Below, in pieces: positions 14,118 to 30,440 of a stretch of DNA of 32,000 bases. The stretch spans positions 60,001-92,000 of the forward strand of contig JAUWKS010000004.1 of the NCBI GenBank assembly GCA_030614005.1, read 5' to 3'. This DNA comes from Candidatus Heimdallarchaeota archaeon. GTDB taxonomy: Archaea; Asgardarchaeota; Heimdallarchaeia; JABLTI01. Every line of letters starts with the position of its first letter. Positions within the stretch are counted from its first letter, which is position 1. The notes under the pieces were generated by a model. That model had not been told where the DNA came from and made no database searches. It saw only the letters and a program-made list of their open reading frames with translations. The translations under genes were made by a program, and so were the position numbers.

Positions 14118-14142
14118 ATATGAGTAGAATATTTACTCATAT
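14118..14142. terminator. Hairpin ATATGAGTA-N7-TACTCATAT between convergent genes
   Basis: Perfect 9-bp stem fills the gap between the stops at 14115 and 14142. Confidence 0.5.
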
Positions 14143-16537: not shown

Positions 16538-17754
16538 ATTATTAGCTCTTCTGCATCAACTACTCTTTTCTTAAGAGATAAATTATTTACTTGGAATTTT
16601 GTTCCATCAAATAATTCTACTTTTTCAAGACCTAATGCTTTAGCTGCGGAAATCCGACCTATTGCATCTGCTTTCATTATTCCTGACCCTGATGTACCAC
16701 TGACCCATTGAATATTGGATACCTTCTCTATAACTGGATTCTTATCAGGTCAATAATAAGCGTAATAACCAGCCCATTTTGAAAAAATTTTGAGTTCTTT
16801 TAATTTAGGAAAGTAATGTTGCAAAACAGGTTTAATGGCAAATTCGAAATATTCTTGATCAGCGTCTGGTGGAAAGTTTTTCATTTGATAGGGATTTCCT
16901 AATTCATTTGCACAACCTACCATTATAATTCCATTTTGTAAAACAGGTTTGACATATACTCCTCCTATAGGAAGTATGAAGATTGGTGTGCTTTCTTTTG
17001 GATTTGAAACAATTTGTATTGGATCTAATTTTAGAGTATACATTTGACGTTTTTGAGGATAAATTTGGGAAGCTATACCTACTGGAGCTAATAGATCATT
17101 TGTCCATGCGCCAGTTGCAAAAAGGAAATTAGTAGCTGCAAACACATCACCGTTTTGATCAGTTATTGAAAGAAGTTTTACATCGGACCATGATGGAAAG
17201 TGTCGTTCTTCTTCAGATAGTGACAATTTCTGAATGCTTTTTTCCAAAGCTATTCTTCCACCTAATGCTTCAAATTGCTTTGAATAGTATTTTGCCAAAT
17301 TAATTGCAGATAATGAACCACATCTGTGTCCATAAATTGCTTGATGAATTTCAGGAAAATCATCTGATGAATTAAAATTTAATTGAAGGTTTTTAGAAAA
17401 TTCATTTGGAGAAAGTATATCGAATGTATCTGATTGATCATTTAGCTTTTGTAATCCTTTCTGAGATTTTTTCCAATCATTTTGTGAGAACATCCAAAGA
17501 TAGCCCAGATTTTTAAGACCAATCTCGCTAGCAATTGTTTCATAAAAACCTATTGAACTGGTAGAAAGCACTAAGCTTGACTTGGATGAAAACAGATTTC
17601 GATAAAGTGCTGCACTTCTTGAAGTATTTCCTGCAGCAATTTTTGAAAACTTATCGATGAGAAGTATTTTTTGTTTTGGAGAATATTTCTGTAAGTAATA
17701 AGCGGTACTTGCACCTATGACTCCAGCACCTACAATGATTGTATCAAATTTCAT
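16534..17754 (-). pseudogene. FAD-dependent DAO/sarcosine-oxidase-beta-family oxidoreductase interrupted by an in-frame TGA at 16750-16752
   Basis: IVGAGVIGAS, AGNTSRSAA, ATGAW and WAGYYAYY. The frame continues for 71 codons (PDKNPVIE...SGTSGSGIMKADAIGR) to TAG at 16534. Confidence 0.8.
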
Positions 17755-17889
17755 TTCAGAACGTCCAAAAACAACTTGTGCTAAACAAAAGCAAATATCT
17801 GATACCTAATGTGAAATATAAAGATTATATATGAGTGAGAAAAATAAGAAAGAAAAAGTAAGAAGAGAATAATTCTCTTAATACTAATC

Positions 17890-19542
17890 TTATACTAAGA
17901 AATTAGTTGGGATAATCCTGTCCTTATGTTCTTGTCTGGAATAATCTGGGAAGAGAATTGGAGAGGGAGGATTCTTTACTTTGTGTTCATCACAAAGGGC
18001 ATTGTATTTTGTAATATGGTCAAGAGTCAATTTGCCTAGAGAAACTTTTGGTATACTCTTAGCTGTAGTGATACCTGCTGCTCTTCCGAATACACTAATT
18101 TCTAGCAAACTGTTACCCATTAGACGATTACTTCCATGTGTACCACCACAAACTTCACCAGCAGCATAGAGGTTTTTCACTGCGGTTGCAGTGTTTTCAT
18201 CAATTGCTAAACCACCGTTTTGATAATGAAGTGTTGGATAAATCAAGATTGGATCTTCAATCATGTTTACGCCAAAGCGTTCGAATTGTCTAACCATAGC
18301 AGCGAAATTCTTTGCAATAGTGCCTTCTCCATGAATTTGATCAATCAATGGGGAATCTAACCATAAACCAGGTTGCCCTGAGGGAGTTACTAGTCCATTA
18401 TTTCTTCCACCACATTCTCTAATGATCAAGCTTGCTTCAACATCTCGTGTCTCGAGTGGGAAACAGAATTGTTCACCATTTTTATTTAGCACTTGAGCAC
18501 CTTTTCCTCGCACTTTCTCAGTTACTAATAAACCGACAATTTGTTCTGGGAATGCAGCTCCAGTTGGATGGTATTGAACGGATTTCATTAACTTCAAGGG
18601 CGCACCAGCACGATAACCCATTACGCAGCCATCAAATGTTGCGCCATAATGGTTTGATGTTGGGAAGCCTTGAATATGTAATCGACCAAAGCCACCTGTG
18701 GTTACAACAGTTGCTTTAGCTTTTACGGTGATGTATTCCTTACTATCAAGATTTAGTAAAACAGCACCAGCAACTTGTCCTTTGTCATCTTTAATGAGCT
18801 CTACTGCTGGAGAGAATTCAATGATAGGAATTTCTTTATTGAAAACTTCATCTCTCAAAGTCTTCATGATTTCTGCACCAGTGAAGTCTTTGGCGAAATG
18901 CATTCTCTTTCTGGAAGTTCCTCCACCATGAATAGCATCCATGGTTCCATCGTCGAACTTATCAAACATCATACCAAGTTTTTCGTACCATTGAAGTAAT
19001 AATGGAGCATCACGTACTAATCTTCTAGTTAATGGAGGATCATTTTCATAATGTCCACCACCAATAGCATCTAGATAGTGAATTGCTGGACTATCTACTT
19101 CTCTTACAGCTGCTTGTATTCCACCTTGAGCCATAGTAGTGTTTGAATCACCCATTCTTAATTTTGTAGCAATCAGAATGTTTTCAGCTTTCACACCGTT
19201 TTTTATTGCCCAGAGTGCAGCATTTGCTCCAGCACCACCACCACCAATGATCAAAAGATCAACAACGAAATCAATTTTGTTGAGATCAACTTTCTTGGGG
19301 TCTAGTACTGATTTTGTTTCAATTATCTTTGCAACTTCAAGAGGAACTACTTCACCTTTTGAAACACCAAAACGCAGACTTGCTTTCTGTGCCTTAATGA
19401 AATCAGGATGGTAATTATTCAACACATCATCAATTTCATCTGGTGAACAGTGGTCCATTGTTACTTTTAATCGTTTTTCACGAGTTTTTTCAACTATTTT
19501 GATTGATTCTCGCATATAGTCTGGATAAGGATCGTTTACCAT
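17890..19542 (-). CDS. Fumarate reductase/succinate dehydrogenase-family flavoprotein (TfrA-like)
   Basis: IGGGGAG, AQGGI, HGGTSRKR, QYHPTG, TEKVRG, ETRD, HYQNGG and NRLMGNSL. Confidence 0.9.
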   Translation of the reverse strand: MVNDPYPDYMRESIKIVEKTREKRLKVTMDHCSPDEIDDVLNNYHPDFIKAQKASLRFGVSKGEVVPLEVAKIIETKSVLDPKKVDLNKIDFVVDLLIIGGGGAGANAALWAIKNGVKAENILIATKLRMGDSNTTMAQGGIQAAVREVDSPAIHYLDAIGGGHYENDPPLTRRLVRDAPLLLQWYEKLGMMFDKFDDGTMDAIHGGGTSRKRMHFAKDFTGAEIMKTLRDEVFNKEIPIIEFSPAVELIKDDKGQVAGAVLLNLDSKEYITVKAKATVVTTGGFGRLHIQGFPTSNHYGATFDGCVMGYRAGAPLKLMKSVQYHPTGAAFPEQIVGLLVTEKVRGKGAQVLNKNGEQFCFPLETRDVEASLIIRECGGRNNGLVTPSGQPGLWLDSPLIDQIHGEGTIAKNFAAMVRQFERFGVNMIEDPILIYPTLHYQNGGLAIDENTATAVKNLYAAGEVCGGTHGSNRLMGNSLLEISVFGRAAGITTAKSIPKVSLGKLTLDHITKYNALCDEHKVKNPPSPILFPDYSRQEHKDRIIPTNFLV

Positions 19543-19564
19543 GTTCTTTACACCTCAGTTCCTC

Positions 19565-20266
19565 TTAGGCTTTTTCCCGTACTCGCTCAGCATAGAGCTT
19601 TGCGAGACCTTTTTTATCGGTCTTCATGAGCTTTTCTAATTCAGCATCATATTTGCCTTTTTCAATTTCCTTGACTCTTTTGGTCATTTGTTTATATTCT
19701 GGTTGAATATAGCGACCGTAAAGTCTTCTAGCTAAAACACCAACATTAAATTGAGTGATTTCAGCTGGACATCTAGTGGCACAAAGTCCACACATTATGC
19801 AGTCAAAACTCAAAGTTGCTGCTAGAGCAATATCTCCTCTTAGTGCTGCTTGCACATAATCCATTACTTCAATGTCCATAGGACAAGCTTTTGTGCACGT
19901 ATTGCAAGAGATACATCTGGCAATTTCAGGATAAAACTCAAGCATTGTATTTGGTACTGCTTTTAAAGACTCTATATCGTAGAGTTTTTTGTTCGCGGGA
20001 CTAATTGGTATTTGAGCAACAATCATACCGTCTTCAACTTTCGTTGCACAAGCTAAGCCTGTGTAGAGTTTGTGATCTCCTTTCAAACGATATATTGTAC
20101 TACAGGCTCCACAGAAACCTCCACGACAACCAACGCCACGATCCAATCTCCATCCGAGATATTCGAAAGCTTTCATTATCGTTAGATTAGATGGAACCTC
20201 AAATTCTGTATTAGCAACAATTATTTTTACTTTCTCATAAGTCACTTCAGTGGTCGTTTTATCCAC
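19565..20266 (-). CDS. FrdB/SdhB-like Fe-S subunit ([2Fe-2S] plus two [4Fe-4S])
   Basis: GCRGGFCGAC...LAC, CISCNTCTKACP and CIMCGLCATRCP. Confidence 0.88.
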   Translation of the reverse strand: MDKTTTEVTYEKVKIIVANTEFEVPSNLTIMKAFEYLGWRLDRGVGCRGGFCGACSTIYRLKGDHKLYTGLACATKVEDGMIVAQIPISPANKKLYDIESLKAVPNTMLEFYPEIARCISCNTCTKACPMDIEVMDYVQAALRGDIALAATLSFDCIMCGLCATRCPAEITQFNVGVLARRLYGRYIQPEYKQMTKRVKEIEKGKYDAELEKLMKTDKKGLAKLYAERVREKA

Positions 20267-20267
20267 C

Positions 20268-21188
20268 TCATTTCTTTACTTTTACGGGAACTTTCATTGG
20301 AGTTCCCAATAACTTCCGTTTCCTTAATACGGGAGTGGGGTCAACATAATGTTCATGAAAACCCAATTCTTTCACATCTACTCCTAAAGCTAAAGCCATT
20401 AATTGAGTAAAGTATACTACTGGAATTTCAGGTAGTGCTGAATTCAATTCTCGAGCTTCCTTTTGGCGTCGATCTAAGTTAAATTGACATAATGGGCAAG
20501 AGACCACTAATAGATCTGCTTCTCTTCGTGCTGCAGAACCGATTATTCTATTTGTTCTATCAGCTACTAGATGCTTATCTTTTACAGTTAGATAAGAACC
20601 GCAACATTCAGTCATATAAGGAGTCTCAACTGCTTCTGCTCCGAGTGCAAAAATCAAATCAGAGAGAATAGTTGGTTTTTCAGGATTCTTGTCAATTGTT
20701 ACTTCTTTAGGTCGAAGTAAAGTGCAGCCATAGTAAGGAGCAACTTTCAACCCTTTAAGTGGATTAACAATTTTCTTTGCTATGCCAGCAATATCAACTT
20801 TTTCTAGCAAAAGTTCAAGTAAATGCCACACTCTTACATCACCTTCATAATCTTCTTCTTCATACATGAAAGCGTTTAAACGAGAAGCCTTTTCCTCATC
20901 ATTCTGAATGAGGATATTTGCTCGCTTTAGAGTATTATAGCACATAGAACAAGTGGTTGTAAGATCTGTAAAACCATCTTCACGAGTACGAATCATATTT
21001 CTCATTGGAGCTAATTGACTTGTAAGATTGTCTTCAGCCAATCCAAAGAAAGTGCCACAACAAGTCCATCGTGTTAATTCAACTAATTCTATGTCGAATT
21101 TCTTCATAACTTCTCGAGCAGTTAAATCCATGTATTTTGCGTATGATTTTGCTGTACAACCTGGGTAGTAGGCTATTTTTTCTGTCAT
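20268..21188 (-). CDS. hdrB: Heterodisulfide reductase subunit B (two CCG domains)
   Basis: YYPGC, TCCG, CSMC, YYGC, ECCG and CPLCQFNLD. Confidence 0.93.
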   Translation of the reverse strand: MTEKIAYYPGCTAKSYAKYMDLTAREVMKKFDIELVELTRWTCCGTFFGLAEDNLTSQLAPMRNMIRTREDGFTDLTTTCSMCYNTLKRANILIQNDEEKASRLNAFMYEEEDYEGDVRVWHLLELLLEKVDIAGIAKKIVNPLKGLKVAPYYGCTLLRPKEVTIDKNPEKPTILSDLIFALGAEAVETPYMTECCGSYLTVKDKHLVADRTNRIIGSAARREADLLVVSCPLCQFNLDRRQKEARELNSALPEIPVVYFTQLMALALGVDVKELGFHEHYVDPTPVLRKRKLLGTPMKVPVKVKK

Positions 21189-21205
21189 CTTTGTTTACGC
21201 TCCGG

Positions 21206-21613
21206 TTATGATGTTTGTTTCTTAAAGCTGCTAATAAGAGCTATTTGGGGTAATTCTTCTAGCTCCTCTTTTGTAAGAGCTTCAAGTGTGACATAGCTTT
21301 TCTTTGCTCTCAGTGAGATTTCTCGTAAAGATTCCATCACTTTAGCAATATCTATGCCTTTTGGACATCTTGCACTACATATTAAGCAAGAAGAACAGAT
21401 CCAGAAGGTGTTAGTATCCAAAACGGATTCATCGCCAAGTTGAATCTTATGAATTACTTGATTAGGTAGGAGGTCCATTACAGCTGATTCAGGACAACCG
21501 CCCGAACACTCACCACATTGATAACACCGCATAATATTAGCACCGGCGAGATCGAGGACCTTCTGACGAAATGCAATGCGTTTCTCAGTTTTGGTTAGTT
21601 TTACCATTGACAA
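21206..21613 (-). CDS. hdrC: Heterodisulfide reductase subunit C
   Basis: CYQCGECSGGCP and WICSSCLICSARCP. Confidence 0.9.
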   Translation of the reverse strand: MSMVKLTKTEKRIAFRQKVLDLAGANIMRCYQCGECSGGCPESAVMDLLPNQVIHKIQLGDESVLDTNTFWICSSCLICSARCPKGIDIAKVMESLREISLRAKKSYVTLEALTKEELEELPQIALISSFKKQTS

Positions 21614-21660
21614 TTATTTTCACTCCATTATTATCTCAATTAATTAATCATAACGTATTT

Positions 21661-22176
21661 CTAATTCAAGATTTTTTCAAGTTCTTGTTCAATTATTGCA
21701 ATTGCTTCTGGAACTGCTTTCTGAACTGTTTCAGAAAGTGATTCACTGAAGTCGCTGATATTTTCGACTTCGATGCCAATAATTGTAACAACTTGAGGTA
21801 ATTTATCCTCTCCTAGTTCTGTTTTGAGAAGATCATAAGCAGTAGCTAAATTGCAGTCGTGAGCACAATAAGTATGGATAGTTGTTCTAAAATCATCGAT
21901 TGAAAACTTGTATACATCACCAGGTGTTCCACCTTGTAATGCTAATCCATCAATCATAATGACATTTGAATATCCAATAAATCGTTCTACTAGACTTAAG
22001 CCACCAATGGATACTTCTTCAAACTCAAGTTCAGGAGTGTTGGAATATTTCTTCTCGAGTAGTCTAACAATGTGTATCCCTACACCATCATCTGATAGAA
22101 TAGGGTTGCCAATACCAATTACTAGTGTTTTGGCTTTTCCAGTGTTTTGATAATTCAGAGAAGAAATTTCATTCAT
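21661..22176 (-). CDS. [NiFe]-hydrogenase maturation protease
   Basis: GIGNPILSDDGVG, IMIDG and HxxH-like HTYCAH; adjacent to the large subunit gene. Confidence 0.9.
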   Translation of the reverse strand: MNEISSLNYQNTGKAKTLVIGIGNPILSDDGVGIHIVRLLEKKYSNTPELEFEEVSIGGLSLVERFIGYSNVIMIDGLALQGGTPGDVYKFSIDDFRTTIHTYCAHDCNLATAYDLLKTELGEDKLPQVVTIIGIEVENISDFSESLSETVQKAVPEAIAIIEQELEKILN

Positions 22177-23630
22177 TGGTTTTTAAGCACGTCCTTGAGA
22201 TTTTTGTCCTTATCGTATATCTTTACTTCAAGGGGCATACTACCAGTTGGAGTATGTGTTGAACACGCTAAACATGGATCATAGGATCTAAATGCAACTT
22301 CAACCATATTCAAGACTGCTTGATCTGTGTAATTGCCATTTTTGATAACATGCTTTGCTGCTTCTCTAACGCTAATATTGATTGGAGCAATATTGTGCGT
22401 TGTTGCAACAATTAGGTTGACTTTCGTAATCATGCCGTTTTCGTCTGCAGTGTAATCGTGAATAAGTGTGCCTCTTGGTGCTTCTACCATACCAATACCT
22501 CTTCCACCCATTTCTTTAGGAATAACGCGGTATTCATTATTGGTTATGTGAGGTTTTTTGCATAAATCTACAATAATTTCTGCTGCATTAAGCATCTCGA
22601 CTAATCGTGCCCAATTAGAAACTAGTTGTAAGTGACATGGTTTTGGTACCACTTCAAAAAGTCTCTTTTGTGCTTTTTGAGCAAGAGGGGTAGAATATTT
22701 TCCAATGTTCAATCGTGCAAGTGGACCAACACTGTATACACCACTTTCAGAACCTGATTCAAAACCTTTCCAACCAATTTTTTGAATGAAGGTTTGTTTT
22801 GCGGTGCACCATGGTTCGCAATGTTCAGTGATATGTTCATAATATTTATCGGCTGGGAAACGATCTATTTCCTTTCCCTCTGGATTAATTATTACTGCTT
22901 CGCTACTGTAATAATCAATGAGTCCATTCTCATCCACAGAAGCCAAGTAATTAAATTCGTTTTTGTAGATATCACCGGTGATTAACTTCAGGAGTTTTTT
23001 CTCTTTAATCAGATCTTCAAACCAGTCTAAACTCCATTGGCAGAATTTGACCATTTCTTTTGCACGCTTAAGAATTTCATCTCGTTCTTCTATTTTAAGA
23101 CCTTTAGATACTCCACCAGGAATAGCAGTAACTGGGTGAGTGGATTTTCCACCAAGAATTTGTTGGATTCTATGAGAATTATTTCTCTGTTTTAGAACCT
23201 CAACAGTTAAGTCTTTATCAGCACGAAGCATTCCAAGAAGATTCCTTTCTGCAGGAGGGGCATCTATCCCCATTACAAAATCAGGTCCAGCGAGAGCAAA
23301 GAAGTGAGCTGAATGAGAATACCATACATGAGCTGTTGCACCCATCCTTCGTAAATCTTCACCTGTTTTCTTAGGTTCAACATGAAAGATTAAATCAAGT
23401 GCTTTTGCACTGGCTATATGATGAGGCCAGGGGCATACACCACATATCCTACTCACGATTCGGGGCATTTCTTCTGCGGGTCTTCCTTCACAGAACTTTT
23501 CAAATCCCCTCAATTCTTGAACTTGGAAATATGCATCTACAGCATTTCCTTTGTCATCAAGAAATATTGATATTTTTGCTTCTCCTTCTAATCGAGAGAC
23601 GGGATTAATATAAATTGTCTTTTTTGTCAT
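22173..23630 (-). CDS. mvhA: [NiFe]-hydrogenase large subunit, MvhA-type (group 3c)
   Basis: SRLEGE, RICGVC, EAPRG and DPCLACSTH followed by a 26-aa cleavable tail. Confidence 0.92.
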   Translation of the reverse strand: MTKKTIYINPVSRLEGEAKISIFLDDKGNAVDAYFQVQELRGFEKFCEGRPAEEMPRIVSRICGVCPWPHHIASAKALDLIFHVEPKKTGEDLRRMGATAHVWYSHSAHFFALAGPDFVMGIDAPPAERNLLGMLRADKDLTVEVLKQRNNSHRIQQILGGKSTHPVTAIPGGVSKGLKIEERDEILKRAKEMVKFCQWSLDWFEDLIKEKKLLKLITGDIYKNEFNYLASVDENGLIDYYSSEAVIINPEGKEIDRFPADKYYEHITEHCEPWCTAKQTFIQKIGWKGFESGSESGVYSVGPLARLNIGKYSTPLAQKAQKRLFEVVPKPCHLQLVSNWARLVEMLNAAEIIVDLCKKPHITNNEYRVIPKEMGGRGIGMVEAPRGTLIHDYTADENGMITKVNLIVATTHNIAPINISVREAAKHVIKNGNYTDQAVLNMVEVAFRSYDPCLACSTHTPTGSMPLEVKIYDKDKNLKDVLKNQ

Positions 23631-23645
23631 GATAGTTCCCTCTAT

Positions 23646-24668
23646 TTACTTTTTAGAGCTCTCCTCTTCAGCAACTTTCTTTTTCGTTTTTATTATGTAC
23701 TCAGGTGTGAAAAACCGATAAAATGTACCAAATGGATCAGGAATTGTTTCCATCAATTTCTTCAAACCTTCAGGACCTAGTTCCGCTTCGATTTTTGCTC
23801 CACCTATTGAAGCAATTGCAGAAAGCATTTTTAATCCTGGATCTTTCACACCTGGAGCGGGACCAAAGCATCCTCTGCATGGCATATTTGCTCCTAAAGT
23901 ACATTGTCCACCACAGCCTGCACGCGTGGCAGGGCCCATACAAATAATCCCTTGAGAAAGCAAACATTTTTCTGGATCTGGATCAATCTCAAATGGTCGT
24001 CTAAATCTGTTTATGACGATTTCTTCAGGTTTTTCGCGACCACATTCTTCGCAAAGGGCAGTTTCACCAGCAACTACTGTTCCTTTTGGTGGTAATTCTC
24101 CCTTCTTGATGAAATTGGTAATAATATCAACAAGCATTTCCCATTGTGTTGGAACAGGAGGACAACCAGGAACAAAATAATTTACATCTACTTCAGATGT
24201 AAGTGGCAAACAAGAGTCTAATAATTTTGGTAAAGTCATTGCCCGTCCTTTTTTATATTCAGATTTAGGTCGCATATAATTTTGATTTGGACCAGATTCA
24301 TCAATGTTGTAGCCATTGGTATATACTGAATCTAAAATAGTTTGTGCATCATATGGATTTGCTAGTTGTGGTATTCCACCAAAACAAGAACAAGACCCAT
24401 AAGCTATCATTACTTTACTCTTTTTTCTGAACAAATGAGCAATTTCAGCATGCTCTGAGGTTCGGATAGGTCCATGATATAAGCAAATGTCAATTTCTTT
24501 ATCTTGGAGAGCCTCTACATCTTCGAATTTGAAATCAGCAGCAACTTGCCAAAATACAAGTTCAATGACTTCTTCGATTGGAATTAGCATCTCATTAAGA
24601 TTAATGATAGACATATCACAACCGCCACAAAATGAACCGGCTGCAACAGCTAATTTTATCTTCTTCAT
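23646..24668 (-). CDS. mvhG: [NiFe]-hydrogenase small subunit, MvhG-type
   Basis: CGGC, GSCSCFGG, PGCPP, CEEC, CMGPATRAGC and CRGCFG. Confidence 0.9.
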   Translation of the reverse strand: MKKIKLAVAAGSFCGGCDMSIINLNEMLIPIEEVIELVFWQVAADFKFEDVEALQDKEIDICLYHGPIRTSEHAEIAHLFRKKSKVMIAYGSCSCFGGIPQLANPYDAQTILDSVYTNGYNIDESGPNQNYMRPKSEYKKGRAMTLPKLLDSCLPLTSEVDVNYFVPGCPPVPTQWEMLVDIITNFIKKGELPPKGTVVAGETALCEECGREKPEEIVINRFRRPFEIDPDPEKCLLSQGIICMGPATRAGCGGQCTLGANMPCRGCFGPAPGVKDPGLKMLSAIASIGGAKIEAELGPEGLKKLMETIPDPFGTFYRFFTPEYIIKTKKKVAEEESSKK

Positions 24669-24669
24669 T

Positions 24670-25125
24670 TTAATGTTTGGCCTCCAGAGCTACCCTATTA
24701 TTTCTTAAGGGATTTGGGGGGAGATGTTTGAGTTTTTCAATAAACTCAGTCATTGTCTTTACGAACTTCTTAGCTTCCGAAGAAGAAATCCACTCGAGAT
24801 GTATTCGCTCATCTTCTATGCCCATTTGAGCAGCTAGTTCTTTGACCAAAACCATTCTCTTTAACGTTTTGTAGTTTCCAGTGACGTAATGGCATTCGCC
24901 TGGATGGCAACCTGCAACAATTACACCATCAGCTCCACCTGCTAAAGCATCAAAGATATAGGTAGGGTCAACTCGTCCTGAACAAGGGGTTACAATAGTG
25001 ATGACATTTGCGGGGTATTTCATTCGAGAAACACCAGCTAGATCTGCTGCATTACTACTACACCATTTGCAGAGAAATGCAATTACTTTGGGTTCGGGGT
25101 TTAACAATTCAGACATTGTACTCAC
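24670..25125 (-). CDS. mvhD: MvhD [2Fe-2S] adaptor subunit
   Basis: FLCKWC, PCSGR, GCHPGECHY and WISSSE. Confidence 0.93.
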   Translation of the reverse strand: MSTMSELLNPEPKVIAFLCKWCSSNAADLAGVSRMKYPANVITIVTPCSGRVDPTYIFDALAGGADGVIVAGCHPGECHYVTGNYKTLKRMVLVKELAAQMGIEDERIHLEWISSSEAKKFVKTMTEFIEKLKHLPPNPLRNNRVALEAKH

Positions 25126-25136
25126 GCACCTATTTC

Positions 25137-27131
25137 TTATTTAGCCTCCGTTTTTAAGGCAATTCGAATCATATTCTCGATTTGCTTATCAGTTTGATTC
25201 TTCAAAGTCAATGCTAAACTTGGGCATGCGCTTGCACACGTGCCACAACCTTGGCAAAGAATTTCTTTCACAACTGAAATGTTCTTTACAGAGTCAAAAG
25301 ATATTGCACCATAGGGACAAAGGCTTTGGCATACTTTGCAACCACTACATGCTTTTTCGTTTACAATAGCCACTATGGGGTCATGATAAAGTTGGGGTTT
25401 TGATAATAGAGCCATTGCTTTTGAAGCAGCAGCGCTACCTTGAGCAACACATTCAGGAATATCCTTTGGTGAGAGTGCAGTACCGGCAACAAATAATCCT
25501 TGAACTAAACTTTCGACTGGTTTCAATTTTACATGTGCTTCCTTGAAAAATCCATATTCATCAAGGTTACACTTTGTTACTCCTGAAAGTATTTTAGTGT
25601 CAAATGAAGGAATCATAGCAGGAGCTAAAACAACTAAATCAGCTTCTACTTCTAATCTTTCGCCTGTAAGTGTATTAGCAGCCCAAATTATCGTTTTATC
25701 TCCTTCTCTGAAGATTTTTGATGGTTTTCCTCTAATGTAAATTACACCCATTTCTTGTGCTCTATCGATGAATTCTTCGTATCCTCGACCAGCTGCTCGA
25801 ATATCGATATAAAAGACATACACTTCTGTTTCTGGCTCTTGATCTTTTAAGAGTAAAGCGTGTTTACCAGTATATGTACAACAGATTTTACTACAATAAG
25901 CCATATGATGTTCTGGGTCTCTACTACCTACGCATTGAACAAAAACAACAGTTTCTGGTTTCTTATGGTCAGATGGTCTTAAAACAGCACCACCAGTTGG
26001 TCCTGCACTATTTAACAAACGTTCGAATTGCAAACCATCTATGACATCAACTTCTGGACCAAAATCATATTCTGAAATCTTTGATATATCGTAGAGATCA
26101 TATCCTGTTGCAATTACTATTGCACCAACATTCAATTCTACGATTTCTTCTTTCATATCATAATTGATTGCTTTTTGTTCGCAAGCATCCCGACACTTTG
26201 AACATACTAAGGGGTGAATACCCAAACAATTCTCAATATCAAGTATATAAGCACTTGGAACTGCTTGTGGAAAAGGTAAGTAGATTGCTTTTCTTGGACC
26301 AAGTCCACCTTCAAATTCATTTGGAACTATTACTGGGCAGACTTCGACACAATCATCACACAAGTTGCAAAGCTCTTCAATAACAAATTTCGGTTTCTTA
26401 GTTATTTGAGCTTTAAAGTTCCCTACGAAACCCGTAACACTAGTTAGTTTAGCGTTTGTTATTAGCTCAACATTATCATGATGAGCTATTTCAGACATTT
26501 TAGGTGATAGGATACATTGAGAACAATCTAGTGTTGGGAATGTTGAAGTTAATTGAGCCATGTGTCCACCAATTGTTGGTGATTGCTCAACTAAATACAC
26601 ATGATAACCTGAGTTTGCTAAATCTAGAGCAGCTTGAATTCCAGTTATTCCTGCACCAACCACCATTGCATTACGATTTACGTCCACAGAAATTGGTGTC
26701 AGTGCTTCATTCAACAAAGCTTTTTCAACTTTAGTTTCAATGATTTTCATTGCTTTTACAGTTGCTTTTTCTTTATCTGAATGAACCCAGCTGCACTTTT
26801 CTCGAATGTTAGCTATTTCAACTTCATATTTATTGATACCAACATCTGCGGCAGCTTTTCTGAAAGTTTCTTCATGCAACGTTGGTGAGCAACATGCACA
26901 AATTATTCCATCTAATCGATGATACTTAATATCATCTTGAAGTGCTTTTTGACCTGGTTCCGAGCACAAATAATGGCTTTCAGCCGCATGAACTACTCCA
27001 TGAAGATTAGTGGCTTCTTTAGCAATGTTTTCAACGTCTACTGTAGCAGCTATATTCTTACCACAATGACACACGAAAACACCTAAACGTTTTGCTTCTT
27101 CTGGTTCTCTAGTTTTCTTTTTCTGAGACAA
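25137..27131 (-). CDS. hdrA: Heterodisulfide reductase subunit A (electron-bifurcating flavoprotein); TTG start
   Basis: VFVCHCG, VGAGITG, FPTLDCSQC, QCVGSRD, YCSKICC and two ferredoxin-like domains. Confidence 0.95.
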   Translation of the reverse strand: MSQKKKTREPEEAKRLGVFVCHCGKNIAATVDVENIAKEATNLHGVVHAAESHYLCSEPGQKALQDDIKYHRLDGIICACCSPTLHEETFRKAAADVGINKYEVEIANIREKCSWVHSDKEKATVKAMKIIETKVEKALLNEALTPISVDVNRNAMVVGAGITGIQAALDLANSGYHVYLVEQSPTIGGHMAQLTSTFPTLDCSQCILSPKMSEIAHHDNVELITNAKLTSVTGFVGNFKAQITKKPKFVIEELCNLCDDCVEVCPVIVPNEFEGGLGPRKAIYLPFPQAVPSAYILDIENCLGIHPLVCSKCRDACEQKAINYDMKEEIVELNVGAIVIATGYDLYDISKISEYDFGPEVDVIDGLQFERLLNSAGPTGGAVLRPSDHKKPETVVFVQCVGSRDPEHHMAYCSKICCTYTGKHALLLKDQEPETEVYVFYIDIRAAGRGYEEFIDRAQEMGVIYIRGKPSKIFREGDKTIIWAANTLTGERLEVEADLVVLAPAMIPSFDTKILSGVTKCNLDEYGFFKEAHVKLKPVESLVQGLFVAGTALSPKDIPECVAQGSAAASKAMALLSKPQLYHDPIVAIVNEKACSGCKVCQSLCPYGAISFDSVKNISVVKEILCQGCGTCASACPSLALTLKNQTDKQIENMIRIALKTEAK

Positions 27132-27132
27132 G

Positions 27133-27699
27133 TTATTTCTTAGCCTCCTGCTTTTTCACCTTTTTTGCATAGTTCTTCCCAGTTTTGAACGCTTTTTCGT
27201 TCAATTCCCTGAATCGAGCTGGTACGAATTCAATTACAGATTTTAAAATCGCTTTTTGATCTATATAGTCATTGAGTTCTGCAAAGAACCCTAGCATAAC
27301 AATATTCGCAACTATCTTTTTGCCAAGTTCTTTTTCAGCTATTGCTGTTGCAGGAATACTATAAATATGTCCAGCTTTCTTCATCCTATCATCGACGGGT
27401 ACGAGATTTTCTTCATAGAAAAACCATCCACCCTCTTTGAGAGAATCAATATGTGTAGTATACGCTTCCTTACTCATACAAATGAAAGCATCTGGTGCTA
27501 ATACGTAAGGAAAGTCTACTTCTTCTTCAGATATAACAAGATTACAAGCACTGGCACCCCCTCTGCTTTCGGGGCCATATGACTGAGTTGTTACAGATTT
27601 TCTCTTTTCAAAGATAGATACAGCAGCTCCAAGTATTTTACCCATAAGTGCTATACCTTGACCGCCAAATCCACACAAACGAATTTCAGTTCTAGTCAT
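27133..27699 (-). CDS. korC: 2-oxoacid:ferredoxin oxidoreductase gamma subunit (KorC-like)
   Basis: GFGGQG, SYGPESRGG and NIVMLG. Confidence 0.88.
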   Translation of the reverse strand: MTRTEIRLCGFGGQGIALMGKILGAAVSIFEKRKSVTTQSYGPESRGGASACNLVISEEEVDFPYVLAPDAFICMSKEAYTTHIDSLKEGGWFFYEENLVPVDDRMKKAGHIYSIPATAIAEKELGKKIVANIVMLGFFAELNDYIDQKAILKSVIEFVPARFRELNEKAFKTGKNYAKKVKKQEAKK

Positions 27700-27703
27700 T
27701 ATT

Positions 27704-28570
27704 TCACCTTCGTTTAGCGAATAGTTGGATTCGCGCTATATGATCACTCAATGTTGGCTTATCTTCTTTATCGACAAATTTACCGACAACGATTTTATTA
27801 CCCAAATTAAGTTCTGCGTCACCAGGGTCAATGCCATGTCGGATAATCGTATTTTCTCTAAAGAATTCCAACATCTTAATTCCTTCCTCATAGTCATTTC
27901 TTCTACCGAAAGTAGTTGGACACGGAGGAATTACTTCAATGAACGAGAAGCCTTTCTTTTTGATTGCTTCGACCATTGAGGCTTGCAATCGTCTTGCATT
28001 TAGAGAAGTCCATCTTGCAACATAAATCGCTCCAGCAGAAGCTACCAAATGGCAGAGATTAAAGTTTGGTTCAACATTTCCATAAGGAGAAGTTGAAGTC
28101 CAAGCTCCCATTGGAGTTGTTGGTGCTAATTGACCACCTGTCATTCCATAAATGAAATTATTTGAACAGATTACTGTAATGTCAGCATTTCTTCTTGCCG
28201 CATGGATTATATGATTTCCACCAATAGCGAATAAATCGCCATCACCTGAAAATACAATTACTTTTAGCTCAGGATTTGCTAATTTTAATCCGATAGCAAA
28301 TGGTATTGCTCTACCGTGTGTTGTATGGAATACATCTAGATCTAAGTAACCAGATGCTCTTCCAGTGCATCCGATTCCAGATACAACCACAATTTTCTTT
28401 GTATCTATTCCGGATTCGGCAATTGCATGGATGAAACATGAAAGCACACTACCTAAACCACAACCACTACACCATACGTGTGGGAGTCGGTCCCAACGTA
28501 ATAAGTAATCCATTGGATGTCTTTTTGCTTCTAGTATAGTATCATCAACTTTTTCTTCTGAGATGGTCAT
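27704..28570 (-). CDS. korB: 2-oxoacid:ferredoxin oxidoreductase beta subunit (KorB-like)
   Basis: WCSGCG, GIGC, TPP motif GDGD...NN, and PCPT. Confidence 0.9.
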   Translation of the reverse strand: MTISEEKVDDTILEAKRHPMDYLLRWDRLPHVWCSGCGLGSVLSCFIHAIAESGIDTKKIVVVSGIGCTGRASGYLDLDVFHTTHGRAIPFAIGLKLANPELKVIVFSGDGDLFAIGGNHIIHAARRNADITVICSNNFIYGMTGGQLAPTTPMGAWTSTSPYGNVEPNFNLCHLVASAGAIYVARWTSLNARRLQASMVEAIKKKGFSFIEVIPPCPTTFGRRNDYEEGIKMLEFFRENTIIRHGIDPGDAELNLGNKIVVGKFVDKEDKPTLSDHIARIQLFAKRR

Positions 28571-29733
28571 TTCTTCTTTACCTCCTCGATTTTCGCTAGT
28601 ATTTCTTTTGGGGTGTGAACAGTCCCACCTAGCTTTGAGGATAGCACAACAGGAACACTCTTTCGGGTTGCTTCTCTAACCTCTTTGACTATTTGTCCAT
28701 TGTTAATCTCTGCTACAACAATAGCATCAACTTTTTTCGCTAGTTCTTCAATAAGCTTCGTTGGAAAAGGCCAAATTGTAATTAAGCGAAGTAGGCCAGC
28801 TTTAATTCCTTTCTTTCGGGCAAGGTTTACTGCGCCTTTTGCAGATCTAGCAGTTATTCCATATGAGATAACAAGTACTTTTGCATCTTTTGTCATGTAT
28901 TCTTCTGTTAATCGGATTTTTTCTTCATTCAGTAATATTTTGTCACACAAACGTTTTACTAATATTTCTTGGGCTTCTGGTGTTATTACTGGATATCCTT
29001 TTGTATCGTGAGTTAATCCTGTAACAAAAACATTGTAACCTTCTCCGGCGGCAGCCATCGGAGGAATCATATCTGCATCAGGTTTAAAAGTCAAATGATT
29101 TTTCTTTGAACCTGTTGGTTTCTTTCTGTTTTCAATTTTTATTTTGGACTTGGTGGGGATAATTAGTTTTTCAACCATATGACATATTGATTCATCAGTT
29201 AGCATAATAACTGGTGTTCTATATTTCTCTGCAAGATTAAAGGCTTCAATCGATAAATCGAATGCTTCCTGCACAGAATTGGGTGAAAGGGCTATTAATT
29301 CATAATCGCCATGAGAGCCCCAGCGTGCTTGCATAACATCTCCTTGTCCTACAAGTGTTGGGAGACCTGTTGAAGGTCCTGCCCTTTGAACATTAATAAT
29401 AACAAAGGGAGTTTCAGTCATGGCTCCAAGGCCTATGTTCTCCATCATTAAAGAAATACCGGGACCAGACGTTGCGGTCATGGATTTCCTGCCAGCCCAA
29501 GAAGCGCCTAAAATAGTAGCAATTGAAGCAATTTCGTCTTCCATTTGGATGAAAACTCCACCCACCTGCGGTAAACGACGAGACATTCTCTCAGCGATTT
29601 CACTCGAAGGGGTGATTGGGTATCCACCAAAAAATCTGCAACCAGCTGCTAGGCAACCTTCTGCAATAGCTTCATTACCACTTATGTAGTGCTCTCCGGT
29701 TAAGACGTCATGTATTGATGCTTTTTTACTCAT
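28567..29733 (-). CDS. korA: 2-oxoacid:ferredoxin oxidoreductase alpha subunit (KorA-like)
   Basis: GYPITPSSE, QMEDE, TSGPG and QRAGPSTGLPT. Confidence 0.92.
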   Translation of the reverse strand: MSKKASIHDVLTGEHYISGNEAIAEGCLAAGCRFFGGYPITPSSEIAERMSRRLPQVGGVFIQMEDEIASIATILGASWAGRKSMTATSGPGISLMMENIGLGAMTETPFVIINVQRAGPSTGLPTLVGQGDVMQARWGSHGDYELIALSPNSVQEAFDLSIEAFNLAEKYRTPVIMLTDESICHMVEKLIIPTKSKIKIENRKKPTGSKKNHLTFKPDADMIPPMAAAGEGYNVFVTGLTHDTKGYPVITPEAQEILVKRLCDKILLNEEKIRLTEEYMTKDAKVLVISYGITARSAKGAVNLARKKGIKAGLLRLITIWPFPTKLIEELAKKVDAIVVAEINNGQIVKEVREATRKSVPVVLSSKLGGTVHTPKEILAKIEEVKKK

Positions 29734-29779
29734 TCAAATTCGCCTTGTTCATTTTATTCAATTGATTCCGAATTTTAGA

Positions 29780-30088
29780 TTATTTTTTTGCACCTGTTGT
29801 ATCTTCTTCTTTCTCAAGGAATATTGAGAATTCGGGGCAAATCAATTCACAGAAACCACATTTTGCGCAATCGTCCATATCCATATCATCCTTGATTTTT
29901 GGAGGATGATACCCTTTAGAATTAATTTCCGGAGAACTTTCTAGTAACTCCGTTGGACAAAAGTTTATACAAAATAAGCATCCTTTACATCGATCTGTTA
30001 TGATCTTTAAGTGCCATTTCTCCTGCTCTTTATATTCGGGAGGTATAAATGATATTATTTTTCTAAGTGTCATGTGCAAACGCAACAT
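29780..30088 (-). CDS. korD: 2x[4Fe-4S] ferredoxin, KorD-like delta subunit (start may be ATG at 30073)
   Basis: CKGCLFCINFCP and CAKCGFCELICP; first gene of the kor cluster. Confidence 0.85.
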   Translation of the reverse strand: MLRLHMTLRKIISFIPPEYKEQEKWHLKIITDRCKGCLFCINFCPTELLESSPEINSKGYHPPKIKDDMDMDDCAKCGFCELICPEFSIFLEKEEDTTGAKK

Positions 30089-30136
30089 TTACAATTTGTG
30101 AGAAGTGTAATTTTCTTATGCTTAAAAAATTATTCT

Positions 30137-30158
30137 ATTGAGTTTGATATTACTCAAT
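30137..30158. promoter_or_regulatory. Palindrome ATTGAGT-N8-ACTCAAT upstream of the kor-hdr-mvh-frd operon
   Basis: Perfect 7-bp arms next to a minus-strand TTTTTAAG TATA-like box (30121-30128). Confidence 0.35.
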
Positions 30159-30282
30159 TGTTTATTATTCAAATTAGAATCACTTCGAATGTATTAATTA
30201 CTTATATAGACATGTTCAAAATTTAGAAGAGAGAGAAATTTGAGTAAAATTGTTTTTTAATTCAAATTAAAGATTGAATAGA

Positions 30283-30389
30283 ATGTAATCTATGTCAAGA
30301 ATGTAATGAATGTAACTTATGTTATGAATGTAATCTATGGAAATATGTTATCTATGTAATGTATGTAAAGAATGTAATCGATGTAAGTA
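30283..30389. repeat. Degenerate tandem repeat, 12 units of 9 nt (consensus ATGTAATNN; one unit is 8 nt)
   Basis: ATG(T) cores at 30283, 30292, 30301, 30310, 30319, 30328, 30337, 30345, 30354, 30363, 30372 and 30381. Confidence 0.85.
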
Positions 30390-30440
30390 AATTATATATC
30401 AAAAAACAAGAAAAAAATGAGAAATCAAAAAGAATACAAA

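Follow-up and report, generated by a model that had tools for sequence, protein, structure and literature searches.

Among the closest described systems is the methanogen MvhAGD-HdrABC complex (PDB 5ODC, 8RVU, 9SFI), all six subunit families of which recur in the Asgard operon analysed here, with a full-length HdrA match, the MvhA nickel site, the two CCG domains of HdrB and the two [4Fe-4S] motifs of HdrC in common. As opposed to the methanogens, the Asgard host lacks mcr and ComA, and hence CoM-S-S-CoB; its HdrC is short (135 residues), all subunits score below the NCBIfam equivalog cut-offs, and the hdr genes are preceded by Kor genes ahead of hdrA and followed by fumarate reductase genes after hdrCB. 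A second relative is TfrAB, the thiol:fumarate reductase of Methanothermobacter (Heim et al. 1998, as cited in PMC8163825). Like TfrAB, the Asgard proteins are soluble and anchorless and combine a flavoprotein with an FrdB-like part ([2Fe-2S] plus two [4Fe-4S]) and an HdrB-like CCG part, but here the iron-sulfur and CCG portions are encoded by two genes, with hdrB ahead of frdB and the order thus reversed. The Tfr models are also matched far below cut-off (TfrA 317 against 718 bits, TfrB 38 against 385), the flavoprotein is extended at its N-terminus and missing its C-terminal domain, and the predicted donor is HdrA/HdrC instead of CoM-SH and CoB-SH.

Two bacterial arrangements come nearer in concept. 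In tubeworm symbionts and Thioflavicoccus mobilis, a FlxABCD-HdrABC-KorABCD-TfrAB cluster has been proposed to encode a single complex sending electrons to Kor and to fumarate reductase (Rubin-Blum et al. 2019, PMC6315080). Its korABCD, hdrABC and tfrAB-like genes are interspersed as in the Asgard operon, whose donor is not the NADH-dependent FlxABC but an Mvh [NiFe] hydrogenase accompanied by a dedicated maturation protease, and whose archaeal cluster contains no acl, pnt or rnf genes. The 'succinate operon' of Pseudoclostridium thermosuccinogenes (Koendjbiharie and van Kranenburg 2019 preprint, cited in PMC7282089) likewise joins an anchorless fumarate reductase to an Hdr-type bifurcating module, with fumarate proposed to drive ferredoxin reduction; as outlined in the citing article, it is bacterial, driven by NADH/Flx, and includes a fumarase but neither Kor nor hydrogenase. 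The first-pass annotation had surmised that similar clusters might exist in other anaerobes, and the concept is indeed already in print for Flx-driven bacterial clusters; the operon described here is an H2/Mvh-driven Asgard version. Finally, type-E succinate:quinone oxidoreductases/MFR (SdhABE) share with the operon the replacement of [3Fe-4S] by a second [4Fe-4S] and a CCG-domain partner, SdhE. In contrast to SdhABE, HdrC is present here, HdrA and Mvh lie in the same operon, HdrB falls below the SdhE cut-off (155 against 500 bits), the FAD is predicted to be non-covalent, and the genus shows no MqnA/D or COX1 as quinone markers.

Operon layout and conservation

The window is a 32,000-nt stretch (forward-strand positions 60,001 to 92,000) of contig JAUWKS010000004.1 from Candidatus Heimdallarchaeota archaeon (GCA_030614005.1), a Heimdall-type Asgard metagenome-assembled genome that is 90.4% complete. 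The open reading frame listing places 13 co-oriented genes on the minus strand between 17890 and 30088, with successive gaps of 46, -4, 4, 1, 11, 1, 15, -4, 47, 17, 1 and 22 nt. Family assignments from Pfam and NCBIfam give the order KorD-KorA-KorB-KorC, HdrA, MvhD-MvhG-MvhA, a HycI-type protease, HdrC, HdrB, a Fer2+2xFer4 protein and a FAD_binding_2 flavoprotein, so that the gene order, orientation and tight spacing described in the first-pass annotation are borne out. In the order of transcription, the features are (bit scores with model cut-offs in brackets):

30089..30440, minus strand: AT-rich upstream region, 352 nt, presumed promoter site with several TATA-like stretches (sequence reading)
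29780..30088, minus strand: korD, delta subunit, two [4Fe-4S], 102 aa; Fer4 dicluster families, top NCBIfam match OGOR_delta (51 bits, cut-off 125)
28567..29733, minus strand: korA, 2-oxoacid:ferredoxin oxidoreductase alpha subunit, 388 aa; POR_N and PFOR_II, PRK08659 (571 bits, cut-off 411), OorA (411 bits, cut-off 579)
27704..28570, minus strand: korB, TPP-binding beta subunit, 288 aa; TPP_enzyme_C, 2-oxoglutarate ferredoxin oxidoreductase beta model PRK09628 (275 bits, cut-off 364)
27133..27699, minus strand: korC, gamma subunit, 188 aa; POR family, PRK08537 (202 bits, cut-off 235)
25137..27131, minus strand: hdrA, electron-bifurcating flavoprotein by family, 664 aa, TTG start; NCBIfam HdrA2 (821 bits, cut-off 1100) and PDB 8rvu_a
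24670..25125, minus strand: mvhD, [2Fe-2S] adaptor between hydrogenase and HdrA, 151 aa; Pfam FlpD (172.7 bits)
23646..24668, minus strand: mvhG, [NiFe] hydrogenase small subunit, 340 aa; Oxidored_q6, VhuG (179 bits, cut-off 450)
22173..23630, minus strand: mvhA, group-3c-type [NiFe] hydrogenase large subunit, 485 aa; top PDB match 5odc_F, MvhA (343 bits)
21661..22176, minus strand: hydrogenase maturation endopeptidase, 171 aa; HycI, TIGR00072 (107 bits, cut-off 47)
21206..21613, minus strand: hdrC, two-[4Fe-4S] subunit, short form, 135 aa; TIGR03290 (69 bits, cut-off 160)
20268..21188, minus strand: hdrB, two CCG domains, i.e. two non-cubane [4Fe-4S] sites, 306 aa; TIGR03288 (168 bits, cut-off 345)
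19565..20266, minus strand: FeS subunit (FrdB/TfrB-N-like) of a putative soluble fumarate reductase, 233 aa; Fer2 and Fer4_9
17890..19542, minus strand: flavoprotein (FrdA/TfrA-like) of a putative soluble fumarate reductase, 550 aa; FAD_binding_2 over residues 95-479 only
17837..17880, minus strand: terminator-like inverted repeat followed by T-rich runs, directly past the last stop codon (sequence reading)

Of the gaps on either side of the gene block, only the upstream region is a long non-coding one, and the two longest internal gaps contain no T-rich stretches. The next gene downstream (16750-17754) keeps its position within the genus only.

A survey of synteny covered 19 related loci and recovered a constant core of hdrC-hdrB-frdB-frdA with hdrA and mvhD. 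The arrangement is not a product of chance, since the same gene order is found in other Asgard families at 50-85% protein identity. Around this core the donor module varies, being MvhGA in most loci and FlxABC, as in the tubeworm symbiont cluster, in two Heimdall-class relatives of the source genome (L075, L076); Kor genes occur in 10 of the 19, and in L064 and L078 hdrCB and frdBA are not adjacent. These last two observations, together with the near-equal scores of HdrB on the SdhE and HdrB models (155 and 168 bits), are what one would expect if the operon encoded separate, co-transcribed enzymes: Mvh-HdrA(BC) with some other acceptor, a type-E-like FrdAB pair (perhaps with an SdhE-like HdrB) and an ordinary catabolic Kor. 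We nonetheless regard this as unlikely, given that the Hdr-Frd core stays the same while its donor modules change, that hdrC, which type-E enzymes lack, always accompanies hdrB and frdBA, that a single HdrB/HdrC pair is available for the single HdrA of the genome, and that none of the 11 genomes of the genus was found to contain Sdh_cyt, MqnA/D or COX1.

Proposed electron path from hydrogenase to flavoprotein

HdrA matches PDB 8rvu_a over residues 7-661 (E 8e-198), and MvhA retains both nickel-site motifs (RICGVCxxxH and DPCLACSTH) and bears a C-terminal extension. In HdrC, eight cysteines and P122, I124, A125 and K132 are invariant among 14 orthologues, and the C-terminal tail is conserved; HdrB, which matches PDB 5odc_B (E 1e-40), has ten of ten cysteines invariant (C11, C43, C44, C80, C83, C155, C195, C196, C231, C234). 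HdrA (by tblastn), MvhD and HdrC each occur once in the genome, and therefore the operon's Hdr has no other partner set; further CCG proteins are encoded, but are unlinked to the operon. Given the sub-threshold scores of all Hdr-, Mvh- and Tfr-type subunits, functions are transferred here at the family level only.

The FeS subunit is weakly matched by NCBIfam models (TfrB 38 bits, dhsB 37 bits), and its 12 invariant cysteines (C47, C52, C55, C73, C118, C121, C124, C128, C156, C159, C162, C166) spell out a [2Fe-2S] site and two four-cysteine [4Fe-4S] motifs. TfrB and type-E SdhB show this combination, in contrast to quinone-linked enzymes. A natural fusion of FeS subunit and flavoprotein exists, which we count in favour of a probable physical association of the two Frd subunits. 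Counting against the Hdr coupling proposed below, more divergent proteins of the flavoprotein subfamily work without any Hdr, as in a trio of FeS protein, flavoprotein and NuoF-like protein.

The flavoprotein has a conserved N-terminal extension of ~90 residues and no C-terminal helical domain; its AF2 model (pLDDT 93) best matches the fold of 1kf6_A (TM 0.70). Alignment to E. coli FrdA identifies counterparts of H232, E245, R248, R287, H355 and R390, so that the protein keeps all fumarate-binding and catalytic residues; five of these positions (H325, E342, R366, H439, R473) are invariant among 23 family members, and the sixth (R345) is nearly so. Its distance from characterised enzymes (the low TfrA score and ~30% identity to FrdA), the unusual extension and the missing domain might instead point to another unsaturated dicarboxylate, or to an imino or thio compound, as substrate. 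With both carboxylate-binding His/Arg pairs and the proton-donor Arg invariant, and with fumarase and SucCD encoded in a genome that has no other fumarate reductase, we hold such a substrate to be very unlikely. The only other SdhA-like gene of the genome is NadB (698 bits, cut-off 629), and the flavoprotein lacks the Glu that precedes the GG motif in that protein.

How electrons would reach this flavoprotein was addressed by modelling HdrC, HdrB and the FeS subunit together, an analysis the first-pass annotation had suggested. The complex scored 0.86 against 0.00 for the best of three controls, passing a mark that 58 of 80 solved complexes reach, as do 2 of 110 mismatched pairs; these counts apply only approximately here, our own alignments having been used. 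Runs shared at least 84% of contacts, with partner pLDDT of at least 81. In the predicted interface, FeS residues 104-145 (including the C118-C128 motif) face HdrB residues 9-16 and 40-45 (C11, C43, C44), and the conserved HdrC tail (residues 110-134) also contacts the FeS subunit; the first cluster motif of the FeS subunit is thus predicted to dock on the first CCG cluster of HdrB. This docking expresses model confidence and not a measurement; its HdrB-HdrC part resembles solved structures, and our search found no solved complex in which HdrB is paired with a protein related in sequence to the FeS subunit.

The predicted docking bears on the choice, left undecided in the first-pass annotation, between fumarate as a direct sink and fumarate reached through a thiol cycle, in which HdrB would reduce some small disulfide and the thiols would be re-oxidised to drive fumarate reduction. 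Such a scheme would amount to the methanogen Hdr plus TfrAB pair with a different thiol, and papers on Asgard archaea do bring in Tfr together with CoM/CoB, or else an 'unidentified heterodisulfide' (PMC9723677, PMC11291895). Both HdrB CCG motifs are complete and form a heterodisulfide-type site that would suit a thiol substrate, and HdrB beside an FrdB-like protein resembles a split TfrB, with weak TfrB matches on both. On the other hand, there is a single HdrB-type subunit, at whose one site disulfide reduction and thiol oxidation would both have to take place, with no gain over direct transfer. With the FeS cluster motif placed directly on the first CCG cluster, the other CCG proteins unlinked, and McrA and ComA absent, a thiol cycle seems to us quite improbable, and the direct option is favoured.

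Kor, genomic context and direction

The absence of mcr and SdhC/D genes from the window, reported in the first-pass annotation, extends well beyond it: McrA, ComA and Sdh_cyt were not found in the 90.4%-complete genome, and neither McrA nor Sdh_cyt occurs in any of the 11 genomes of the genus. Hence, neither the substrate used by methanogens nor a membrane anchor of the classical kind is available. By the markers MqnA/D, COX1 and Sdh_cyt, and classical Men aside, the genus likewise gives no hint of a quinone pool. What we count as the putative remainder of a reductive branch comprises, in this genome, genes for an Ldh_2-type malate dehydrogenase, a class I fumarase and SucCD.

Among the Kor models, the generic KorA alone clears its cut-off, and 2-oxoglutarate is thus a putative substrate; a second Kor-like cluster is present in the genome (on C35). 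The link of Kor to the Hdr-Frd core is optional, as roughly every second related cluster has no Kor. For this reason, and with succinyl-CoA synthetase encoded on another contig, the operon does not form the self-contained circuit that had been envisaged.

The opposite direction, in which ferredoxin reduced by 2-oxoglutarate oxidation and electrons from succinate are confurcated at HdrA to yield H2 in an amino-acid fermentation, would agree with accounts of cultured Asgard archaea as H2-evolving fermenters with a confurcating Mvh-Hdr (PMC9723677; PMC11216029). Peptidases and SucCD are encoded in the genome. Kor-type enzymes are, moreover, reversible. Against this, the group 3c hydrogenases characterised so far all oxidise H2 in the account of PMC11216029. 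The FAD-linking His44 of FrdA is replaced by Asn in the flavoprotein and throughout its long subfamily. In E. coli FrdA, H44 variants with non-covalent FAD still reduce fumarate but do not oxidise succinate. Averaged over ferredoxin and succinate/fumarate, the potential (~-230 mV) is also too positive for H2 formation unless H2 is extremely low. This H2-evolving route, which the first-pass annotation had kept as an option, is consequently disfavoured and has in our judgement only a slight probability.

A proposed H2:fumarate/ferredoxin system

The operon probably encodes a soluble H2:fumarate/ferredoxin electron-bifurcating system with direct wiring, coupled to a Kor-type 2-oxoacid:ferredoxin oxidoreductase. 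MvhAG would oxidise H2 and, by way of MvhD, deliver electrons to the HdrA FAD, at which the pair would be split. The high-potential electron would travel through HdrC, the two non-cubane clusters of HdrB and the two [4Fe-4S] and one [2Fe-2S] clusters of the FeS subunit to the non-covalent FAD of the flavoprotein, at which fumarate would be reduced to succinate with no thiol/disulfide intermediate. The low-potential electron would go to ferredoxin, or possibly to KorD directly, and Kor would spend the reduced ferredoxin in carboxylating succinyl-CoA to 2-oxoglutarate. The stoichiometry would balance, with one reduced ferredoxin (two electrons) formed per fumarate and one required per succinyl-CoA. 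The chain from H2 through HdrA to fumarate and ferredoxin, and on to Kor, proposed in the first-pass annotation thereby finds partial support in the retained active site, the constant core, the donor swaps, the single Hdr without mcr or CoM synthesis and the complex prediction. What the sequences show directly is which genes are present, how they are ordered and conserved, the residues for cofactors and catalysis, and the lack of methanogen cofactor genes; complex formation, direction, the two substrates and bifurcation itself are what we infer.

The redox potentials involved are -414 mV for H2, ~+30 mV for fumarate and ~-140 mV for CoM-S-S-CoB. Fumarate offers far more driving force than CoM-S-S-CoB, and ferredoxin reduction would therefore be feasible at the low H2 of sediments. 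The operon suggests that it is fumarate, and not a methanogen-type disulfide, that would enable reduced ferredoxin to be obtained from H2.

Gene content of the operon and its flanks

The ORF listing of the window gives 13 consecutive minus-strand ORFs running from 30088 to 17890, which Pfam and NCBIfam identify, in operon order, as KorD, KorA, KorB and KorC, HdrA, MvhD, MvhG and MvhA, a HycI-type maturation protease, HdrC, HdrB, an iron-sulfur protein with a Fer2 and two Fer4 domains, and a FAD_binding_2 flavoprotein. The operon and its two fumarate reductase-like genes are:

17890-30088, minus strand: 13-gene kor-hdr-mvh-frd operon
17890-19542, minus strand: FrdA/TfrA-like flavoprotein (frdA-like)
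19565-20266, minus strand: FrdB/TfrB-N-like iron-sulfur (FeS) subunit (frdB-like)

The intergenic distances, in the same order, are 46, -4, 4, 1, 11, 1, 15, -4, 47, 17, 1 and 22 nt, and a reading of the sequence found no T-rich stretch in the two longest internal gaps. An AT-rich gap of 352 nt lies upstream of the operon, and immediately 3' of its last stop codon come an inverted repeat and then T runs. Since ORF coordinates, gaps and family assignments all match, the gene content, order, coordinates and gaps described for the operon in the first-pass annotation are correct to the base. Scanning with the sigma-70 promoter consensus yielded 44 sites against 53 expected, and the terminator scan 12 matches against 9.2 expected; neither is informative for an archaeal host. 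The stretch occurs in DNA runs only, from marine-sediment and cold-seep metagenomes, with no RNA run among those listed.

A DAO-family gene at 16750-17754 was considered as a 14th member of the operon and rejected, as it is conserved within the genus only and a terminator-like stretch lies in between. Between korD and an Arf-like gene, at 30268-30386, there is a tandem array with a 9-bp period and some 12 copies of the consensus ATGTAATCT (plus strand), which sits upstream of the operon's presumed promoter and could be a regulator-binding array. The Arf-like gene, directly upstream of the operon (30441-31370), encodes an Arf-family small GTPase of 309 aa with a C-terminal extension and is kept at the same position within the genus. 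Further away lie a NACHT/AAA-like ATPase of 430 aa (14142-15434) and two large ORFs without a Pfam match (10362-12677, 771 aa; 9261-10232, 323 aa), and the other genes of the window are archaeal housekeeping genes (TFE-alpha, deoxyhypusine synthase and a ThrRS with the archaeal editing domain).

Hdr, Mvh, Kor and fumarate reductase-like subunits

The operon contains all six subunit families of the methanogen MvhADG-HdrABC complex. HdrA aligns in full length (residues 7-661) with a solved methanogen HdrA (PDB 8rvu_a, E 8e-198); HdrB retains both CCG motifs complete, with ten cysteines that are invariant in 14 orthologues, and the same holds for the eight cysteines of the two [4Fe-4S] motifs of HdrC, which also has a conserved C-terminal tail. 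Among the [NiFe] subunits, MvhA presents both nickel-site motifs, RICGVC and DPCLAC, matches PDB 5odc_F with 343 bits and has an extended C-terminus that would be cleaved off by the protease encoded next to it, and the small subunit is recognized by Oxidored_q6, as MvhD is by FlpD (Pfam). The operon differs, however, in that all these subunits fall below the NCBIfam equivalog cut-offs (HdrA2 821 against 1100, HdrB 168 against 345, HdrC 69 against 160, VhuA 338 against 800, VhuG 179 against 450 and VhuD 139 against 215), and hence, as judged from these scores, the Hdr and Mvh subunits are relatives of the methanogen enzymes that lie outside the same functional family. The delta, alpha, beta and gamma subunits of Kor carry POR_N, PFOR_II, TPP_enzyme_C, POR and Fer4 domains. 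For KorA, model PRK08659 exceeds its cut-off of 411 with 571 bits, and the best-scoring named Kor models are those for 2-oxoglutarate, all below cut-off (OorA 411/579, KorB 275/364, OGOR_delta 51/125). HdrA, MvhD and HdrC are present in one copy each in the source genome, which also contains a second four-subunit Kor-like cluster (C35:89870-92755; KorA 49% identical) and, at C27:6568-12984, a second MvhG/MvhA-like pair (44-45%) and another hydrogenase.

The flavoprotein (550 aa) can be aligned to E. coli FrdA over residues 92-493, with FrdA residues H232, E245, R248, R287, H355 and R390 corresponding to H325, E342, R345, R366, H439 and R473. In an alignment of 23 family members five of these counterparts are invariant and R345 is nearly so, and the dicarboxylate-binding His/Arg pairs and the proton-donor Arg of the Frd/Sdh flavoprotein superfamily are all kept. 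E. coli FrdA is likewise the top PDB fold match (TM 0.70) of the AlphaFold model, which is confident throughout (pLDDT 93, pTM 0.92), including a conserved N-terminal extension of about 90 residues with an HPD[YF] motif and no Pfam family that is predicted to pack against the rest of the chain. The flavoprotein lacks the C-terminal helical domain, with no Pfam match to Succ_DH_flav_C, and Asn134 stands where FrdA has its FAD-linking His44; this asparagine is found in every member of the long subfamily, whereas classical members of the same alignment keep the histidine. The FeS subunit has twelve invariant cysteines, assignable to a [2Fe-2S] and two four-Cys motifs. Its divergence is such that generic 2x[4Fe-4S] ferredoxin domains are all that a sequence search of the PDB returns, with no complex II subunit among them.

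These features set the pair apart from membrane-bound complex II and from TfrAB. Membrane-bound complex II (classes A-D) has a covalent 8-alpha-N3-histidyl FAD and a [3Fe-4S] motif in its FeS subunit, in contrast to Asn134 and the two four-Cys motifs here, and its SdhC/D-type haem or quinone anchor, sought as Sdh_cyt, was found in none of the genus's 11 genomes. In TfrAB, TfrB is a single chain with an FrdB-like N-terminus and an HdrB-like C-terminus, whereas the operon splits these parts between two genes, hdrB lying upstream of frdB; on the operon proteins the TfrB model reaches 38 and 32 bits against a cut-off of 385, and the TfrA model 317 bits on the flavoprotein against 718, matching model positions 8-410 of 546. 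Among the other FAD_binding_2 proteins of the source genome, only one carries a Succ_DH_flav_C domain, and its gene stands alone on contig C71. This gene was rejected as a canonical SdhA: it lacks an FeS partner and is NadB (L-aspartate oxidase; 698 bits against a cut-off of 629). The Glu before the GG motif, which we take to be a NadB-specific catalytic residue, is present in this NadB and absent from the operon flavoprotein.

Conservation, donor modules and predicted docking

Taking as orthologues those proteins with at least about 50% identity that align from residue ~5, the full-length flavoprotein is found in about 65 of 399 Asgard species genomes, spanning at least 13 families; the other Asgard matches are NadB/SdhA-type paralogues that align only from residue ~90. 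A synteny survey had been suggested at the outset, and a search with a single protein produced six close loci; the wider survey by genome search, with the 13 operon proteins mapped onto 19 loci, bears out the recurrence of the cluster. The frdB gene directly precedes frdA in every one of the 19, hdrC-hdrB directly precedes frdB in 17 and sits at another position of the cluster in the remaining two, and hdrA and mvhD are present wherever the contig allows. MvhGA is the donor module in 12 loci, Kor occurs in 10, and extra HdrA-like proteins are seen in others. This mapping points to HdrABC-MvhD plus FrdAB as the constant unit, with interchangeable donors and a frequent but optional Kor. In two loci of the Heimdall class (L075:8717-11586 and L076:5011-7894) FlxA-, FlxB- and FlxC-like genes (NAD_binding_1, FAD_binding_6, DHODB_Fe-S_bind; Fer4_22; Fer4) replace mvhG and mvhA in an otherwise identical Kor-HdrA-HdrCB-FrdBA cluster, and the donor module has thus been swapped within the class. 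The 13-gene feature is real, conserved and functionally coherent.

The hdrC-hdrB-frdB-frdA arrangement is also found in a Desulfocapsaceae bacterium, with a flavoprotein 54% identical. One Asgard genus (L072:12478-14752, L073:333-2682) has a second, classical-type FrdA/FrdB pair adjoining the Hdr-linked one. A natural fusion of FeS subunit and flavoprotein exists (P0003, 727 aa, L084:5250-7433), and a bacterial protein from the same flavoprotein subfamily with 44% identity (P0004, L080:9366-12891) sits in a trio of FeS, flavoprotein and NuoF-like (Complex1_51K) genes without any Hdr, possibly a simple NADH:fumarate reductase. The existence of the fusion and of the Hdr-free trio suggests that the FeS-flavoprotein pair acts as a soluble acceptor module of the plug-in type.

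The point of contact between this module and Hdr was modelled, as the first-pass annotation had proposed, by predicting HdrC, HdrB and the FeS subunit as a complex in three runs, each chain being represented by a 14-row orthologue alignment. The prediction, which conveys the confidence of the model and is no measurement, supports binding, with a score of 0.86 against 0.00 for the best of three controls; of 80 solved complexes 58 reach the score mark, as do 2 of 110 mismatched pairs, a calibration that holds only roughly because own alignments and three chains were used. The runs share at least 84% of contacts, with a partner pLDDT of at least 81. In the predicted interface, residues 104-145 of the FeS subunit, including the C118-C128 cluster motif, face HdrB residues 9-16 and 40-45, which carry C11, C43 and C44 of the first CCG motif, and residues 110-134 of the HdrC tail take part as well. 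The HdrB-HdrC portion may simply reproduce the solved structures that this pair resembles; a PDB search found no solved complex in which HdrB is bound to a protein related in sequence to the FeS subunit. The modelled interface agrees with electrons passing directly from cluster to cluster at the disulfide-binding site of methanogen HdrB.

Fumarate as a proposed acceptor of the Hdr complex

The most economical reading of the operon is H2:fumarate/ferredoxin electron bifurcation with ferredoxin feeding Kor. The high-potential branch would run from HdrA through HdrC and HdrB to the FeS subunit, FAD and fumarate, and reduced ferredoxin would pass to Kor, the one reduced ferredoxin formed per fumarate being what one succinyl-CoA carboxylation needs. 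The potentials involved are -414 mV for H2, about +30 mV for fumarate/succinate, about -140 mV for CoM-S-S-CoB and about -450 to -500 mV for ferredoxin. With fumarate the driving force is much greater than with the methanogen disulfide, and ferredoxin reduction would therefore stay feasible at sediment H2 levels. The first-pass annotation had named fumarate as the sink, reached directly or through a thiol cycle, and had allowed for a reverse, H2-evolving route; it is the direct version that we favour. A thiol cycle between HdrB and the fumarate reductase would require the single HdrB to run both half-reactions, and markers of mcr and CoM synthesis are absent: in family searches of the source genome (3.62 Mb, 126 contigs, 90.4% complete) McrA and ComA, the markers for the CoM-S-S-CoB substrate of MvhADG-HdrABC, were not found, and McrA is lacking from all 11 genomes of the genus. 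Asgard archaea are not known to make CoM/CoB. The family searches also found no Sdh_cyt in the source genome, and neither the MqnA/D family nor COX1 in any of the 11 genomes. The H2-evolving direction is likewise disfavoured, by the predicted non-covalent FAD and by unfavourable thermodynamics.

Two further readings concern how closely the enzymes cooperate. They may be separate enzymes that are merely co-transcribed, which is possible. At the other extreme, and in our judgement improbably, all the gene products less the protease would form one soluble particle, a fumarate-to-2-oxoglutarate metabolon in which HdrA splits the H2 electrons, the HdrB clusters act as a pure wire without thiol chemistry, and the low-potential electron goes straight into KorD/Kor without free ferredoxin. 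Were this true, fumarate would be the long-sought physiological Hdr acceptor in non-methanogenic archaea such as the Heimdall-type Asgards.

Bifurcation to fumarate and ferredoxin would take its place in a wider pathway, since malate dehydrogenase (Ldh_2-type), class I fumarase and SucCD are encoded elsewhere in the source genome, making a reductive route from oxaloacetate to 2-oxoglutarate possible. The same reductive route operates with Tfr and Kor in Methanococcales and Methanobacteriales. Citrate_synt was not found in the source genome or in its 96%-identical closest relative. Of 10 congeners 6 have it, and five of these also contain a second Citrate_synt-domain match, in four cases in frames of ~711-714 aa that are possibly ATP-citrate-lyase-like. 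The layout of the TCA cycle thus varies within the genus, and the idea that the operon is the sole route to 2-oxoglutarate was dropped as a firm claim in view of the congeners with citrate synthase.

The concept of a bifurcating fumarate reductase is not itself new, and a bacterial, NADH-driven form was already proposed in 2019. Rubin-Blum et al. 2019 (PMC6315080) reported that, in tubeworm symbionts and Thioflavicoccus, korABCD and tfrAB lie among the flxABCD-hdrABC genes, and suggested that one complex feeds both enzymes. The interspersed korABCD, hdrABC and tfrAB-like genes are common to that cluster and the operon, but the donor there is the FlxABC NADH dehydrogenase, against MvhGA and its protease here. 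The 'succinate operon' of P. thermosuccinogenes joins a Flx-Hdr module to a fumarate reductase, with ferredoxin reduction being proposed (PMC7282089; cited 2019 preprint). Papers on Asgard archaea treat hdrABC, mvhADG and a cytoplasmic fumarate reductase as separate items (PMC11291895, PMC8163825, PMC9723677), and they leave the high-potential Hdr acceptor as 'an unidentified heterodisulfide' (PMC11291895) or call on CoM/CoB and a Tfr that depends on them. The literature searched yielded neither a description of the Mvh-driven operon nor a biochemical test of any version. The operon is a new hydrogenase-driven, archaeal variant of the proposed systems.

For the non-methanogenic Asgard archaea, the operon offers a concrete and testable Hdr acceptor in fumarate, whose much more positive potential would allow ferredoxin to be reduced with H2 even where, as in marine sediments, H2 levels are very low. 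If confirmed, H2:fumarate/ferredoxin would constitute a new class of flavin-based electron bifurcation, and the non-cubane clusters of HdrB would be shown able to act as a plain electron relay. Views on how the archaeal relatives of eukaryotes metabolize hydrogen and carbon would change as well, with these archaea being H2 consumers that build C5 skeletons reductively, and not only H2-evolving fermenters.
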